Shown here: in pieces, positions 67 through 35,700 of the stretch
How positions within the stretch are numbered: the first letter of the stretch is position 1
Layout of the letters: each line of letters starts with the position of its first letter
Assembly: GCA_964577565.1 (NCBI GenBank)
Contig: CAZNZL010000001.1
Coordinates: 206,566-270,565 of the forward strand
Length of the DNA: 64,000 bases
Source: an uncultured Candidatus Saccharibacteria bacterium
GTDB lineage: Bacteria; Patescibacteriota; Saccharimonadia; Saccharimonadales; JAGQNJ01
Direction: 5' to 3'
The notes under the pieces: model-generated
Told to the model about the DNA's origin: nothing
Database searches by the model: none
Seen by the model: the letters and a program-made list of their open reading frames with translations, nothing else
Position numbers and translations under genes: made by a program

Positions 67-522
67 TTACTTCTTCTCCTTCTTATCGTCTTTTTTAGCG
101 GTTTTCTTCTCATCTTGCTTGTCAGTTTTAGCAGATTTATCTTCAGCTTCACCGAAAATATTAATGCTACTACCTTCTGCTAAGCGTACATAAGCTTTCT
201 TGGCTTTTGCACGCACACCAGCTACTGGTCGGTTCCGCTTTTGGTAAGACTTTTTGACTTTACCCTTTACTACTACAACTTTTACGTCTTGCACGGTAAC
301 GCCAAATTGTTCTTGAACAGCAGCAGTAATCATCATTTTGTTAGCAGTTACCGGTACATCAAACACATAGGTGTTTAGGGCCAGGCTTGTGCCATAGGCT
401 TTTTCGCTCATGCGGGGCTTCAATACGACGGTTTTACTCATACCGTTAGAAATTACTTTAGAGGTAGATTTTCTATCAGTATTAGCTGTGTTCATTTTTG
501 CGCGATTTCTAACGGGACTCAT
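67..522 (-). CDS. rplW: 50S ribosomal protein L23, with an N-terminal extension and a Lys-rich C-terminal tail
   Basis: The core VVLKPRMSEKAY...VTANKMMI...FGVTV..V matches L23. The ATG at 522 overlaps the rplD stop (TAATG) and has GGGGGTGA 8 nt upstream. An alternative start at M28 (441) lacks an SD. Confidence 0.9.
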   Translation of the reverse strand: MSPVRNRAKMNTANTDRKSTSKVISNGMSKTVVLKPRMSEKAYGTSLALNTYVFDVPVTANKMMITAAVQEQFGVTVQDVKVVVVKGKVKKSYQKRNRPVAGVRAKAKKAYVRLAEGSSINIFGEAEDKSAKTDKQDEKKTAKKDDKKEKK

Positions 523-1154
523 TATTTGTCACCCCCAAGCCACTCGTTAATGATATCGAGTGATTTCTTAGTAATAATGATCGAATCAGCATTAAGAACA
601 TCATAAACATTCACATACTTTGCTTGCACTAAAATCACGTATGGAACGTTGCGGCTAGCTCGCACTAGCTCACTAGACTTGTTATCTACAACAACCAGCA
701 CGTTTCTGTTAGCACCAATTTTATTAAGCAAGGCCACAAATGGTTTAACTTTGCCGTCGTTGCTTTCAATACTGTCAATTACATTAATAGCTTTCGACTT
801 TAAGCTTAATGCTTGTCGAAGAGCAGTTTGTTTTGCTGCTGTGTTGAGCTTTCGACTGTAGTTTTCATTGCCGGTTGGGCCAAACACAATACCACCACCA
901 CGCCAAATTGGGTTTCGAGATGAACCAAAACGTGCACGGCCGGTACCTTTTTGGCGCCATGGCTTTCTACCGCCACCGCGAACTAAGCCACGAGTTTTAA
1001 CCACAGCATTATTTTCTCGGCCATTTGCTAGGTATGATAAATAGGCTTGCTTTAAGAGGTCGTGGCTCTCAACTGTTATGCCAAATACTTTTTTATCTAA
1101 CTTAACAGGAGTTGTTGCTTTAGTGCCTGATTTTGTATAGGTAGGAACGCTCAT
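522..1154 (-). CDS. rplD: 50S ribosomal protein L4
   Basis: 210 aa with an L4/L1e signature (KTRGLVRGGGRKPWRQKGTGRAR). GGAGGTG SD 8 nt upstream. S10 operon context. Confidence 0.97.
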   Translation of the reverse strand: MSVPTYTKSGTKATTPVKLDKKVFGITVESHDLLKQAYLSYLANGRENNAVVKTRGLVRGGGRKPWRQKGTGRARFGSSRNPIWRGGGIVFGPTGNENYSRKLNTAAKQTALRQALSLKSKAINVIDSIESNDGKVKPFVALLNKIGANRNVLVVVDNKSSELVRASRNVPYVILVQAKYVNVYDVLNADSIIITKKSLDIINEWLGGDK

Positions 1155-1258
1155 TATTTTTCACCTCCGGTTAACGAGACAAACCTACGGTTTTTCTCAT
1201 CGCGCAAGGTTTTGAATGAATCAAAACTTTGGCTGCTCTTTTCCCTTGAGAAATACAT
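1154..1258 (-). CDS. Intercistronic mini-ORF A (34 aa, MYFSREKSSQSFDSFKTLRDEKNRRFVSLTGGEK); novel small protein or relay ORF
   Basis: The ATG (1258-1256) overlaps the rplC stop as TAATG. The stop TAA (1156-1154) overlaps the rplD ATG as TAATG. The span is exactly 105 nt with no internal stop. The core 1171-1247 is repeated at 14020-14096 with 3 mismatches. It is too short for the supplied ORF track. Confidence 0.5.
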   Translation of the reverse strand: MYFSREKSSQSFDSFKTLRDEKNRRFVSLTGGEK

Positions 1259-13100: not shown

Positions 13101-13997
13101 CGGCAAAACCGTTAAGCACATAGAATTAGGCTTAATATCTGCTTGCTCCATACTTTCAAGCAAGCGCAAGCGCTTCATTAGTTTCTTTTTGCGCTGACCT
13201 TTCGCTTCTTCAGCTTCTGCGGTGAGGTCTTTAATTAGCTTCTTCAGATCAATTTGATCAAGTAGGTCTTTTAAGGCTGTACCACCCATACCGACCTCGA
13301 TGATATCTGCTAATTCATCTGGTAAATTGTGGTAGTCACTTTCGCTAATAAGGTTAAGCTTAACCAATGAATCAACCTGAGCCTTAAAGGTTTCAAAGCT
13401 TTGCGTAATCTCTTCGAGCTCTTTGGTACGCATTTCTGCCAAAGCCTTAACGTTGGCATCGTCTTTTGCAGCCTCTGCTTCATAGCGAGCTTTGATTGCT
13501 TCTTGTGCGGCAGCAAATTCTGCCTCTTTGTCTGCTAGTAGCTGGTCTCGCTTAGCTTCATCAACAGACTTAATGATATAGCTCGCAAAGTAGGCGACCC
13601 GTTCTAGGTTTTTTACCGTTAAGCCTAGGAGTAACCCTACGGCTGATGGTGTACCACGAAGAAACCAAATATGCGCTACGGGGCTTGCTAAACTAATATG
13701 ACCCATGCGCTCACGTCGAACAATTGATTTGGTGACGATTTCGCCATTTTTATCAACTGCCGCCTCACGAGAACGAACACCTTTATATTTTGCGTCATGG
13801 GGGTTTATATCTTTGACGGGGCCAAAGATGCGCTCACAGAATAGACCATCACGCTCTGGTTTTTGTGTTCGATAGTTAATAGTCTCTGGTTTTGTGACCT
13901 CGCCATGTGACCAATCTAAAATGTCATCTGCACTTGCTACCGCAAGGCGAACAGCATCAAAGTCTGAGATGGTGGGGCCGCTAGAGTAACGTCGCAT
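10188..13997 (-). CDS. rpoC: DNA-directed RNA polymerase subunit beta'
   Basis: 1269 aa with the [12 protein letters not shown] catalytic motif. Confidence 0.99.
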
Positions 13998-14107
13998 TAG
14001 TTTACCTCGCTTTCGCTCATTAATGAGACAAGCCTACGGTTTTTCTCATCGCGCAAGGTTTTGAATGAATCAAAACTCTGGCTGCTCTTTTCCCTTTTGA
14101 AAACCAT
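13997..14107 (-). CDS. Intercistronic mini-ORF B (36 aa, MVFKREKSSQSFDSFKTLRDEKNRRLVSLMSESEVN); paralog of mini-ORF A
   Basis: The ATG (14107-14105) overlaps the rpoB stop as TAATG. The stop (13999-13997) overlaps the rpoC ATG as TAATG. The span is 111 nt, in frame. Of the 3 substitutions against copy A in the 77-nt core, 2 are synonymous (CAA/CAG, TCG/TCA) and 1 is F->L. Confidence 0.5.
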   Translation of the reverse strand: MVFKREKSSQSFDSFKTLRDEKNRRLVSLMSESEVN

Positions 14108-18524: not shown

Positions 18525-18554
18525 AGTATAGCCAAATTAGCACTCGTCAGTCAA
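18525..18554 (-). promoter_or_regulatory. clpP promoter (TTGACT-N18-TATACT) overlapping CIRCE
   Basis: Reverse complement = TTGACTgacgagtgctaatttggcTATACT. The -35 box lies in the CIRCE spacer. Confidence 0.6.
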
Positions 18555-18563
18555 GAGTGCTAA
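18537..18563. promoter_or_regulatory. CIRCE operator (HrcA binding site), perfect consensus
   Basis: TTAGCACTC-gtcagtcaa-GAGTGCTAA matches TTAGCACTC-N9-GAGTGCTAA exactly. Confidence 0.85.
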
Positions 18564-33015: not shown

Positions 33016-35493
33016 CTATTCGTTGCTCACACTGTAGGCAAGATCTTTATTTTTTGTACCTACTTCAACTACGGTACCCTTGTCGTACATACCATTAATA
33101 AGCTCAACAGCAATATGATCCTCTAATGTGTCTTGTAGTAAGCGTCGCATTGGCCGTACGCCGTTTAATGCATCGTACCCATTTTTAAGAAGGTAGTTTT
33201 TAGCTGCAGGCGTCAGTCTAACGCTGACCCCTCGCTTAGTGAGACGTTGCTTAAGCTCATCAATTTGTAAATCCAGGATTCTAAGAATGTTTTGGCGTGT
33301 CAAAGCCCGGAATACAATAATTTGATCAATTCGGTTTAATAACTCTGGGCGCATCATTTTCTTAAGCTGATCAAGTACCTTGTCTTTATTGGCATCATGT
33401 AACTTGTTAAGATCGTTAAGATCCTCTTTATCAACGGCGCTAAACCCAAGGCTTACTTCTTTTTGGAGCCGTTCCGCACCAATATTACTGGTCATAATTA
33501 CAATAGTGTTCGTAAAATCAATTTTACGGCCCTTTGCATCCGTCAGCGTACCGTCTTCAAGAATCTGCAGCAACATATTAAAGACGTCTGGGTGGGCCTT
33601 CTCAATCTCGTCAAACAACACCACACTGTACGGCTGGCGTCGTATTTTATCGGTCAGCTGGCCGCCATCATCATAACCCACATAACCAGCCGGCGCACCA
33701 ACAAGACGCGCAACATTATGATGTTCACCGAACTCACTCATATCTATTTTTACAAGTGATTCTTCAGACCCAAAAAACTCTCGTGACAATACTCGTGCCA
33801 GTTCGGTTTTACCCACCCCTGTCGGACCTAAGAAAATGAATGAACCAATCGGCCGCTTAGGACTACTAACGCCCGAACGGTTACGGCGAACAGCCCGCGC
33901 CACAGCGTGAACTGCTTCATCTTGCCCAATAACGTATTTGCCAAGATTCTTCTCTAAGTTAAGCAGGTATTTTGCCTCTGATCTGATGACTTTTTGTACG
34001 GGTACACCGGTTGTTCGCGCAACAATTTCAGCTACGTCGTCGCTTGTCATACTGATTTTTTTGGTCTCTTTTTCTGAGGCTTGTAACTTCTTTAAATCGG
34101 CATGAATCTGGCTAGCGCGTTGTTTATGCTGGGCCGCCTTTTCATAATCTTCACTATCAACGGCATCTTCAATGCGCGTATTAATGAGTTTTAGCTCATT
34201 CTTAAGTTTGCGCACTTCTGGCGGCGTGCGGCCCTTATCAATACGCAAATGAGCGGCTGTTTCGTCAAGAAGATCGATCGCCTTATCTGGCATAAATCGA
34301 TCATTAATGTAGCGGTCAGCCAAACCAACAATATCTTCTAATACTTCATCGGCCACGGTAACGCCATGAAAAGCCTCGTAATGCTTACGAAGACCTTTTA
34401 AGATTGCAACTGTCTCTGCTTTATTGGTGGGAGGTACTTGAATGGGCTGAAAACGGCGCTCTAAGGCACTATCCTTTTCGATATGCTTGGTATATTCAGC
34501 TGTAGTAGTAGCACCAATTACCTGAACTTTCCCGCGCGCTAAAGCGGGTTTAAGAATATTACCCGCATCGAGCGCTCCTTCGGCTGCGCCGGCTCCTACA
34601 ATTAAGTGCAATTCATCAATGAAGACAATGGTTTTTGTGTCGTTTTCAAGTTCGGTCATAACCTTCTTTAGACGCTCTTCAAACTCACCCCGATATTTTG
34701 TGCCTGCAATCATAGCGGTTAAGTCAAGCATAACAATACGCTTATCAAGCAGGCTGTCAGGAACATCTTCGCTGATAATACGCTGGGCTAAACCTTCAAC
34801 AATAGCAGTTTTTCCAACGCCGGGCTCGCCTATTAAGACAGGGTTATTTTTAGTACGGCGATTCAAAATGGTTACCATTCGCCTAATTTGGGCATCGCGG
34901 CCAACCACTGGATCAAGCTTAGCGTCACGTGCAGCTTGTGTTAAATCGGTACCAAAAAAATCAAGAGCCGTTTTACGACGTGGTTTTTTACGAGCAGTGC
35001 CCGAACCGTTGCTTGACCCCTCTTCGTATTGCTGACGATTAAGAAACTGCTCTAATTCGTTCATAAGGCCATCTACATTTATCTTCATATCACGCAGCAA
35101 AACAGTTGCGCGGGCATTTTTTTGGCTCAGTATGCTGTACAGAATATGCTCAGTACCACAAAATTCTTGATTATAATCTTGTGCAATATCATAGGCCATT
35201 TTAAGCGTTAATTTGGCGGTTTCACTCAAGCCCTTTGCACCCATATTAATCACCAATGTCTTTGGCGTTAAATTAAGCGCCAGGCGAGCTCGGTCAAGCG
35301 TAACGCCAGCGTCTTGAAGTAATTTTGCGCCCATTGAAGATTCTTGAGCCAACACACCCAAAAGCAGGTGCTCAGTACCAACATAGGGGCTACCAGCTGC
35401 ACGTGCAATACCATCTGCGTGGCGCAAGCTTTGAAGCCCGTTCTCTGTAAGATGATTGATAAATTCTTGAAATTCTGATGAGTTTGGTGGCAT
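33016..35493 (-). CDS. clpC: ATP-dependent Clp protease ATP-binding subunit ClpC
   Basis: 825 aa with duplicated Clp_N repeats, two AAA+ modules ([16 protein letters not shown]) and a short UVR-type linker. Confidence 0.93.
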
Positions 35494-35508
35494 AAATTAT
35501 CGCTCCGC

Positions 35509-35627
35509 TTAATAAGACAAACCTAGGGGTTTTTCTCATCGCGCCAGGCAAAAAGTATGATACTGTACCCCTCAAAATTTCATTTTGTGGGGACCCCAGT
35601 TTTTGCTTGGGCTGCTCTTTTCCCTCC
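35509..35627 (-). repeat. Third copy (C) of the mini-ORF/RNA element, in the clpC 5' UTR; non-coding, with an expanded central hairpin
   Basis: The gene strand keeps GGGAAAAGAGCAGCC and GCGCGAUGAGAAAAACC-loop-GGUUUGUCU. The central hairpin is about 40 nt longer, and the A/B reading frame is broken by stops. Confidence 0.6.
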
Positions 35628-35661: not shown

Positions 35662-35691
35662 AGTATAGCGAAATTAGCACTCGTCAGTCAA
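35662..35691 (-). promoter_or_regulatory. clpC promoter (TTGACT-N18-TATACT) overlapping CIRCE
   Basis: Reverse complement = TTGACTgacgagtgctaatttcgcTATACT. Near-identical to the clpP cassette. Confidence 0.6.
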
Positions 35692-35700
35692 GAGTGCTAA
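35674..35700. promoter_or_regulatory. CIRCE operator (HrcA binding site), perfect consensus
   Basis: TTAGCACTC-gtcagtcaa-GAGTGCTAA, identical to the clpP copy. Confidence 0.85.

Follow-up and report, generated by a model that had tools for sequence, protein, structure and literature searches.

The 64,000 nt stretch of DNA analysed here, referred to below as the window (positions 206,566 to 270,565 of contig CAZNZL010000001.1, assembly GCA_964577565.1, from an uncultured Candidatus Saccharibacteria bacterium), carries three copies, A, B and C, of one short element. All three are on the minus strand, and they are located between rplC and rplD, between rpoB and rpoC and in the 5' untranslated region (UTR) of clpC, respectively; the identity of the flanking genes as rplC/rplD (ribosomal proteins L3/L4), RpoB/RpoC and ClpC is backed by Pfam. 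Two conserved blocks of the element have exactly three exact matches each in the window: GGGAAAAGAGCAGCC on the minus strand at 1231–1245, 14080–14094 and 35610–35624, and GCGCGATGAGAAAAACC at 1189–1205, 14038–14054 and 35528–35544. The pattern joining both blocks gave three matches against 0.00 expected from shuffled sequences, and a full, unfiltered covariance-model search of the window returned copies A, B and C only. Copies A and B score highly (Table 1), and copy C is found at 28.4 bits (E 9e-6) with a 46 nt insertion within the loop of the first helix, P1.

Table 1. Features of the element and its surroundings in the window, with variant and rRNA-borne copies at loci in other sequences (L numbers)
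Feature	Position	Strand	Remarks
Copy A	1174..1246	-	rplC-rplD spacer; covariance model 85.3 bits
Copy B	14023..14095	-	rpoB-rpoC spacer; covariance model 82.7 bits
Copy C	35512..35625	-	5' block, P1 with nested module, GCGCG linker and P2; exact conserved blocks
5' block of copy C, AGGGAAAAGAGCAGCC	35610..35625	-	Purine-rich, mostly single-stranded; last 3 bases lengthen the base of P1
P1 of copy C	35545..35609	-	5' arm CAAGCAAAAA (35600-35609), 3' arm TTTTTGCCTG (35545-35554); conserved A.C mismatch
Nested hairpin module, GGGGTCCCCACAAAATGAAATTTTGAGGGG	35568..35597	-	Separate, widely distributed family; sole such site in the window
P2 of copy C	35512..35539	-	ATGAGAAAAACC-CCTA-GGTTTGTCTTAT; conserved A.G mismatch
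3' tail of copy C, TAAGCGGAGCGATAATTT	35494..35511	-	GGAG at 35503-35506 is the only Shine-Dalgarno-like site before the clpC ATG (35491-35493)
Mini-ORF through copy A	1154..1258	-	34 codons; its ATG and the rplC stop overlap as TAATG, as do its stop and the rplD ATG
Mini-ORF through copy B	13997..14107	-	36 codons; overlaps the rpoB stop and rpoC start likewise
CIRCE operator at clpC	35674-35700	-	-35 TTGACT inside the operator loop, -10 TATACT at 35662-35667; from sequence reading and a promoter scan
Three-way-junction variant	L059 5954-6048	+	
Three-way-junction variant	L020 7018-7112	+	
Three-way-junction variant	L124 ~330-460	+	
Three-way-junction variant	L221		
Three-way-junction variant	L160		
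Copy in 23S rRNA	L124 2519-2592	-	
Copy in 23S rRNA	L082 129-211	-	

The element is built from a purine-rich, single-stranded 5' block (AGGGAAAAGAGCAGC), the helix P1, a second helix, P2 (AUGAGAAAAACC-loop-GGUUUGUCUCAU), and often a short tail bearing a Shine–Dalgarno (SD) sequence. The 5' block is identical across the three copies of the window, and folding of copy C as RNA recovered both helices and placed an extra hairpin in the P1 loop. A preliminary description of copy C, made from the window alone, had already recognized that both blocks are retained there, that an A.C mismatch lies at the same position of the first helix in A, B and C, and that the second hairpin is kept, all of which we confirm. 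Other parts of that description need correction. The base of the helix is indeed CAAG/CCTG in copy C and AAAG/CCTT in copy A, but in copy B, which had been grouped with A, it is AGAG/CCTT, the second pair becoming G.U. The extra ~40 nt of copy C are present but do not form an elongated P1, as had been thought; the P1 loop has been swapped for a 45 nt insert made up of a 30 nt module (35568–35597) and ~15 nt more. Likewise, the element does end close to an SD sequence, although the distance from the end of the second hairpin is ~5–14 nt, and not 5–12 nt. SD-bearing tails akin to that of copy C (AAGCCGGAGGCG, AAGGCGAAGCC) come after copies in other genomes; the tail of copy C also contains CCGCCCCTG.

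Upstream of copy C is an operator of the controlling inverted repeat of chaperone expression (CIRCE) type with a promoter embedded in it. This promoter and operator (35662..35700) are conserved in four relatives, and copy C starts ~30 nt downstream of the likely clpC transcription start, and for that reason is placed within the 5' UTR. A second CIRCE, near-identical to the clpC site (TTAGCACTC-N9-GAGTGCTAA), is located upstream of clpP (18537–18563, minus strand); both sites sit in a 46 nt repeat that is 96% identical between clpC and clpP, and CIRCE is also kept in the clpC leaders of six other genomes. These operator sequences suggest HrcA control of Clp protease genes in this lineage.

Comparison of clpC leaders indicates that copy C is a newcomer. 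The four nearest ClpC relatives found (92, 88, 86 and 83% identity) have CIRCE, the promoter and a short leader with the SD sequence GAGGGT, but no element. In the window, ~35 nt of the leader, including this old SD, have been replaced by a 26 nt tail, the element and a 14 nt tail with GGAG. At two further loci (L032 and L048), where ClpC is 76–77% identical, the element again lies between CIRCE and clpC, with different tails and, in one of them, a different type of P1. Repeated independent insertion into the clpC leader would be the simplest reading of these sequences, and the element is dispensable at any given site. Because the insertions at clpC appear to be independent, the difference between AAAG/CCUU and CAAG/CCUG is a difference between subfamilies. 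The preliminary description had taken it for a compensatory change from A–U to C–G between A/B and C; as copy C is an independent, lineage-specific insertion of a different subfamily, the exchange cannot be counted as compensatory evolution at one locus.

The element is a family of ~85–95 nt non-autonomous structured repeats across Saccharibacteria. An exact-pattern scan with two exact anchors, covering one genome per species and yielding minimum figures, returned at least 118 matching stretches, all of them from Saccharibacteria, Saccharimonadales or Patescibacteria metagenome-assembled genomes (MAGs), several MAGs giving more than one contig; viral contigs had no copy of the main element. 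Among closed Saccharibacteria genomes, CP025011.1 and OZ246413.1 each contain copies. The loci from other genomes were 8–22 kb pieces of the host genomes, and the covariance model met further copies by chance within these pieces, about two-thirds of which do not match the exact pattern. At the gathering threshold, Rfam 15 recognizes one tRNA only in the window, and the copy C and copy A regions searched at E ≤10 gave only chance-level matches of 11 bits. No description of the element was found in the literature when searched by organism, topic and exact sequence strings. At the density of the window (three copies per 64 kb), a few dozen copies would be expected per genome, and the element should be usable as a sequence marker for the lineage.

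Evidence that the helices are under selection comes from the family as a whole. Of the cells of an alignment of 116 copies fitted to the model, 90.0% are paired, as opposed to 40–54% when the partners are slid by 1–3 columns; double changes occur in 22 of the 25 pairs and total 379 cells, a number that does not exceed 101 in any slid control, and none of 500 shuffles reached any of the observed pairing measures. RNAalifold, run on a plain MAFFT alignment, gives the pair singled out in the preliminary description as CG in 72, GC in 24, AU in 22 and UA in one of the sequences, with many double changes further inside P1. The distal part of P1 is free to vary, shrink or branch, while P2 is conserved; among 120 aligned copies the distal P1 sequences are unrelated (CAAAAATCACATTTTTG, ACTTTGGCTTTGCCAAAG, CGACGGATTTACTCCGGCG, AAAATGTATTCCATTTT), yet the pairing is kept. 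The structured RNA proposed from copy C stands in so far as the helices are real and selected, as judged by covariation and shuffling; the argument from a compensatory change does not.

Two non-canonical positions, A.C in P1 and A.G in P2, are themselves conserved, and among the variable pairs G.U (48) exceeds A.C (18), a mild indication that it is the sense strand that folds. In divergent copies P1 may be minimal (GC-GAA-GC) or replaced by a three-way junction, and P2 may lack its upper half; the junction core AGGGAAAAGAGCAGC / GCGCGAUGAGA...UCUCAU persists in them. One variant subfamily (Table 1) has P1 turned into a three-way junction (ACC-hairpin-hairpin-GGU) and, in P2, AUAGG/CCUAU instead of AUGAG/CUCAU, which is compensatory. 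A further upstream helix, P0, formed between the 5' block and CUGCUCU(C/U)UUUCC as present in some leaders and in the 23S rRNA copies, was considered and rejected, the best-stem distribution across all copies being equal to that of the control; by this measure the 5' block has no general pairing partner upstream.

Mini-ORFs run through copies A and B and through 22 others. In these 24 copies an ATG lies 4–8 codons upstream of, and in frame with, AGG GAA AAG AGC AGC, and the core of the element measures 48 or 51 nt without exception, whereas among the 102 of 126 copies outside this class, most of them without an in-frame ATG, its length is divisible by three in only 31, and 49 or 50 nt dominate. 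The first P1 pair is A–T in 18 of the 24 as against five of the 102. The stop falls no more than 1 nt from the next start in 20 of the 24, with a one-base overlap of the TAATG type in 13. Copy C is non-coding, as had been noted, since the A/B frame gives ...AAA ATG AAA TTT TGA there and has no upstream in-frame ATG. The mini-ORFs are very probably translated, and the 24 in-frame ATG codons, the constant core length and the close fit of stop and start could be taken to mean that the repeats are genes for a small protein of ~35 aa (M-x4-8-[RK]EKSSQ...LRDEKNRRFVS), of which copy C would be a pseudogene. We regard this as very improbable. An open frame and a start are not present in all copies; the blocks are equally conserved in tRNA and rRNA leaders that have no ATG and a core of 49 or 50 nt; the central part of the peptide comes from the covarying hairpin and shows no conservation at the protein level; and antisense copies are crossed by a coupled upstream ORF in another frame and on the other strand. 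Since the same nucleotide blocks are conserved in untranslatable tRNA leaders and the central peptide segment is not, no protein product is implied, and the ORF looks like the price of sitting between coupled genes. Read-through would in that case be a condition for survival between translationally coupled genes, and not the sign of a protein product. Gene callers are likely to annotate spurious hypothetical peptides of ~35 aa at such sites, or to miss the mini-ORFs of copies A and B.

Signs of mobility are not confined to clpC. The upstream flank is repeated downstream in 17 of 124 copies at an alignment score of at least 15 (control maximum 14, 99th percentile 10), and 12 copies score 20 or more; the repeats vary in length from 17 to 70 nt, some being perfect over 42–50 nt. 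The duplication takes in the opening codons of a gene, the closing codons or the SD–ATG junction, and so leaves one gene copy intact; depending on the need, a new stop or SD or an upstream ORF is contributed by the element. The upstream duplicate ends 0–20 nt from AGGG, or only a few nucleotides from it on close reading, the gap being largely diverged duplicate; past the 3' edge there is a tail of 4–26 nt that recurs between genomes (e.g. TAGGCGAAGCCGC). Inspection of the flanks by eye revealed no fixed motif next to the element, although no motif test was run. At msrA the element is antisense in three species (L054, L096 and L046), and in L054 the duplicated msrA start opens an upstream ORF that passes through the element and terminates in TAATG, where the real start lies. 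Antisense copies at the start of the same gene across species are also seen at a second gene (L033 and L045), each flanked by a duplicate of the first 30–44 nt of the gene; the duplicates in L054 are identical at 44 of 44 positions though the species differ by ~30%, which implies repeated same-site insertion or gene conversion between duplicates. The same-site copies of these two genes are 82–90% identical between species, and the coding DNA beside them is 66–71% and the 3' flanks 57–75% identical.

The element is not distributed at random with respect to genes. In 37 of 126 copies a tRNA gene lies no more than 150 nt downstream, on the same strand in 36 of the 37, and most of these tRNAs start 3–12 nt past P2; many such leaders have a −10 box 25–45 nt upstream of the element, and the tRNAs so preceded represent at least 15 different amino acids. 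Two copies adjoin the 5' end of 16S rRNA, ~20 nt or less before it, and 41 copies are followed by an SD and an ORF, the downstream products being S17, L4, L2, S14, S18, S7, L16, L13, S9, ClpC, Pth, TrmD and RNase III. When scored symmetrically, a gene start (a tRNA or an SD with an ORF) is found no more than 70 nt 3' and on the same strand in 56 of 98 copies, against eight in the mirror test (5', opposite strand); for tRNAs alone the figures are 26 and two. Only 60% of the coding DNA in the same loci is on the strand of the element, so the sense bias is tied to the adjacent gene. In a few antisense copies, the neighbourhood is wholly on the opposite strand. Orientation driven by replication was rejected on these two grounds, the 60% local strand sharing and the antisense copies in uniformly opposite neighbourhoods. 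The one tRNA gene of the window has no element.

At tRNA-leader loci such as L043, L106, L103, L005, L013 and L109, the promoter shows a −10 box, in many cases preceded by TG, and then a C-rich discriminator and the motif CCYCTGTT; similar strings, TGTTG or TTTGC, open the 5' tails of certain copies located elsewhere. Each spacer holds a single unit, the nearest copies being ~400–700 nt apart with genes between them (L031, L040). Several successive spacers of ribosomal protein operons are occupied in some genomes, with three copies within 1.2 kb in L031 and two each in L040, L025 and L087, and the P1 sequences in such operons are nearly identical within a genome, which suggests recent spread or homogenization along the operon. 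A full copy is also present inside a 23S rRNA helix, near model positions 330–400, in two genomes (Table 1), where it may be an intervening sequence or an expansion segment; these 23S copies have an inverted partial copy of P2 upstream and a segment, CUGCUCUCCUUUCC, that is a potential partner of the 5' block.

Copy C follows a CIRCE-controlled promoter directly and precedes a heat-shock gene, a 5' UTR position that invites the idea of a regulator specific to clpC or to the ribosomal protein operons, such as a riboswitch, a ribosomal protein operator or an RNA thermometer. This idea is highly unlikely and is largely refuted by the distribution just described. A gene-specific operator is not to be expected of an element that precedes tRNAs, 16S rRNA and many unrelated genes; the clpC leaders of the closest relatives do without it; and neither a terminator, an SD-sequestering platform nor an Rfam match was found. 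Of the properties expected of a cis-regulatory RNA, a structure backed by covariation is present, whereas a coherent set of regulated genes and an expression platform are not, the element being antisense at msrA.

A broader host function is harder to dismiss. The element could be a generic cis-acting leader module kept by selection at each site, with its spread being secondary; candidate roles are an endonuclease processing site, a 5' stabilizer or insulator that leaves the SD or the RNase P site accessible, or an undescribed self-cleaving RNA that sets the 5' end of the RNA downstream. We consider this explanation possible, though doubtful, and it need not exclude the reading that we prefer (below). 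In its favour, the 3' end of the element adjoins the 5' ends of tRNAs, 16S rRNA and coding regions, and a conserved junction core with variable stems at its periphery is a typical trait of functional RNAs. Conservation is higher in same-site copies than in the neighbouring coding DNA, and the element has turned up more than once in a given leader (clpC in three lineages, msrA in three species), has persisted in small, compact genomes and occurs as an intervening-sequence-like copy in the 23S rRNA helix of two genomes; these genomes also encode RNase III. Against it, close relatives lack the element at clpC, as does the tRNA gene of the window, some copies are antisense to their whole neighbourhood, and ribosomes reading the copies within operons would melt the fold. 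No Rfam ribozyme or leader family was matched even at E ≤10. Two resemblances were set aside: GCGAUGAG looks by eye like the hammerhead core CUGAUGAG, yet here CUCAU is the partner of AUGAG and the stem is not followed by GAAA, and a boxA-like GCUCUUU in the complement of the 5' block falls on the non-transcribed strand in most copies and was judged a coincidence.

Our preferred interpretation, which we consider probable, is that the element is a mobile structured repeat under RNA-level constraint and that copy C is a recent, lineage-specific insertion in the clpC 5' UTR. The preliminary description had set a selfish repeat, comparable to a miniature inverted-repeat transposable element (MITE), against an RNA function. 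That scenario is partly borne out: copies are non-random with respect to genes and orientation, yet 17 of 124 have flank duplications and presence varies among relatives. The element has spread within and between genomes, new copies being flanked by duplicated target DNA of 17–70 nt, and most of the sampled copies are sense-oriented and located directly in front of a functional unit, be it a tRNA, 16S rRNA or a protein gene whose SD is supplied by the tail. The sampled copies between operon genes have an in-frame ATG and a core whose length is a multiple of three, and a ribosome that initiates at the duplicated start codon would traverse the element as a mini-ORF. The helices would be selected in a single-stranded form, most likely the transcript, and the conserved core may be a recognition surface for a trans-acting factor, either the copying machinery or a host RNA-processing or RNA-binding protein. 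For clpC the practical outcome is a replaced SD and, behind the promoter controlled by CIRCE/HrcA, a longer and highly structured leader; this does not call for a regulator specific to clpC.

Several points weigh against this interpretation. Covariation was counted on a model-fitted alignment of related sequences, and it is unable to tell an RNA fold from a fold of single-stranded DNA; the conserved A.C mismatch of P1 would be G.U on the opposite strand. As the copies were collected by means of anchors, the invariance of both blocks is overstated and partly circular. The high identity of same-site copies reflects either selection on the element or gene conversion among copies, of which the second would remove its bearing on constraint. 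In the 8–22 kb loci we saw no transposase, reverse transcriptase or other mobilizing gene, nor orphan 5' and 3' blocks convincingly flanking a gene, as an autonomous parent would have. The ends, compared by reading, do not form terminal inverted repeats, the 5' end AGGGAAAAGAGCAGCC being dissimilar to the reverse complement of the 3' end, ATGAGACAAACC.... Finally, the long, variable duplications and the leader replacement at clpC fit no standard transposition chemistry that we can name with confidence.

Some of these points could be turned into an argument for a DNA-level element, in which hairpins of single-stranded DNA are recognized by a strand-specific enzyme of the type known from repetitive extragenic palindromic (REP) sequences and their REP-associated tyrosine transposases (RAYTs), or from IS200/IS605 derivatives, and in which the sense bias is a by-product of gene orientation relative to replication. 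The two imperfect conserved hairpins resemble transposon-end hairpins, covariation does not distinguish DNA from RNA folding, the conserved A.C becomes G.T on the other strand, and many copies end in ...CATTACC. We nevertheless think this explanation improbable. To our knowledge, HUH-type elements make no target duplication, and the insertion without duplication at a fixed tetra- or pentanucleotide that characterizes REP/IS200/IS605 elements is not what is seen; duplications of 17–70 nt are present. In addition, the bias follows the adjacent gene and not the general strand, as the figure of 60% for local coding DNA indicates, and no associated transposase gene was seen in the loci.

Alternatively, the element may itself be an RNA-level mobile leader, either a retroposed tRNA leader comparable to a short interspersed nuclear element (SINE) or a new processing signal or small self-cleaving RNA, although we hold this to be unlikely. 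In the retroposed form, the unit would span approximately from the transcription start of tRNA-type promoters (the tails TGTTG/TTTGC) to a few bases before the RNase P site, and would be a by-product RNA released from every pre-tRNA; the unit has one sharp and one ragged end, and its target duplications are of variable length. In the other form, the 5' ends of tRNAs, of 16S rRNA and of single cistrons in Saccharibacteria would be set by the element.

Of separate interest is the hairpin module nested in copy C (GGGGTCCCCACAAAA-TGA-AATTTTGAGGGG, inserted in the P1 loop). It belongs to a family with a pattern of ~30 nt, GGGGTCCCC-R-CAAAA-loop-TTTTG-Y-GGGG, often followed by UAUAR or AGAGGAGG, and is also present in P2 of another copy of the element (L078, ~165–208, minus strand) and in several further copies; in each of the five cases scored, module and element share one strand. 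Some of the modules inside the main element are flanked by repeated AAAACC. The family extends to at least 120 metagenome contigs (L124–L243) of unrelated composition and context, where the module typically forms the tip of a further hairpin; one module lies within the P12 loop of an RNase P RNA (L195), and others are found close to rRNA genes and in four viral contigs (L244–L247). Its R position forms G.U, A–U or G–C pairs, and this pairing of R with U points to the sense strand as the one that is folded. We found neither an Rfam family for the module nor a paper quoting its sequence. The GGGGUCCCC-hairpin module might be a second element, one that crosses phyla and enters the apical loops of structured RNAs, a reading that we likewise hold to be unlikely. 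Its presence in RNase P RNA, in rRNA regions and in many unrelated contigs makes it worth a study of its own.

Saccharibacteria live as ultra-small episymbionts, and their genomes of ~1 Mb are usually considered compact and streamlined. If the element is selfish, it would provide a natural case of an insertion that survives in a gene-dense genome by means of duplicated gene ends, its own SD and a kept reading frame that preserves translational coupling; a functional element would act across the lineage as a signal for the definition or stability of RNA 5' ends in a phylum whose RNA metabolism is almost unstudied. Several known systems invite comparison with the element. REPs are single palindromes of ~35 nt, usually located 3' of genes and without target duplication. 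The element shares with REPs, with bacterial interspersed mosaic elements (BIMEs) and with the RAYT system its hairpins, its strand specificity and its location in transcribed intergenic regions of operons, and differs from them in the REP features just given; no RAYT gene was seen for it, although this was not tested genome-wide. IS1634 reportedly generates variable, long direct repeats of tens to hundreds of bp, and we know of no other bacterial transposition system than the IS1634 type with long direct repeats of variable length; elements of this type are, however, of kilobase size with a transposase and inverted ends, neither of which has been tied to the present element. Intervening sequences and unexplained insertions are reported to occur in the rRNA genes of candidate phyla radiation (CPR) bacteria, to which the copy in a 23S rRNA helix of two genomes bears a likeness, as does the nested module where it occupies loop P12 of an RNase P RNA; most copies of the element, however, are outside rRNA.

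Two groups of repeats come closer. Mycobacterial interspersed repetitive units (MIRUs) are said to be short intercistronic repeats, oriented with the genes and arranged in tandem arrays, with small ORFs that overlap the stop and start of their neighbours and thereby preserve translational coupling. The element resembles them in occupying operon spacers in gene orientation and in the overlapping mini-ORFs described above. It differs in that it is single at each site and found also in tRNA and rRNA leaders and 5' UTRs, and in its strong helix covariation and long flank duplications; MIRUs are tandem and have no described two-hairpin fold. MITE-like repeats (Correia/CREE, ERIC, RUP, BOX and the Rickettsia palindromic elements) are non-autonomous, multicopy sequences of ~100 nt that are co-transcribed and form stable hairpins. 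Like them, the element is small, non-coding, multicopy and rich in hairpins, its presence varies among relatives, and it tolerates translation as the Rickettsia elements do. It has no terminal inverted repeats, however, and a variable duplication of 17–70 nt instead of a fixed one of 2–10 nt, and it shows a sense bias of ~7:1 directly 5' of gene starts and a core conserved across many Saccharibacteria species. Although it would fail the defining tests of either group, the element appears to have its nearest analogues in the MIRUs, as regards the mini-ORFs, and in the MITE-like repeats, as regards size, copy number and co-transcription.

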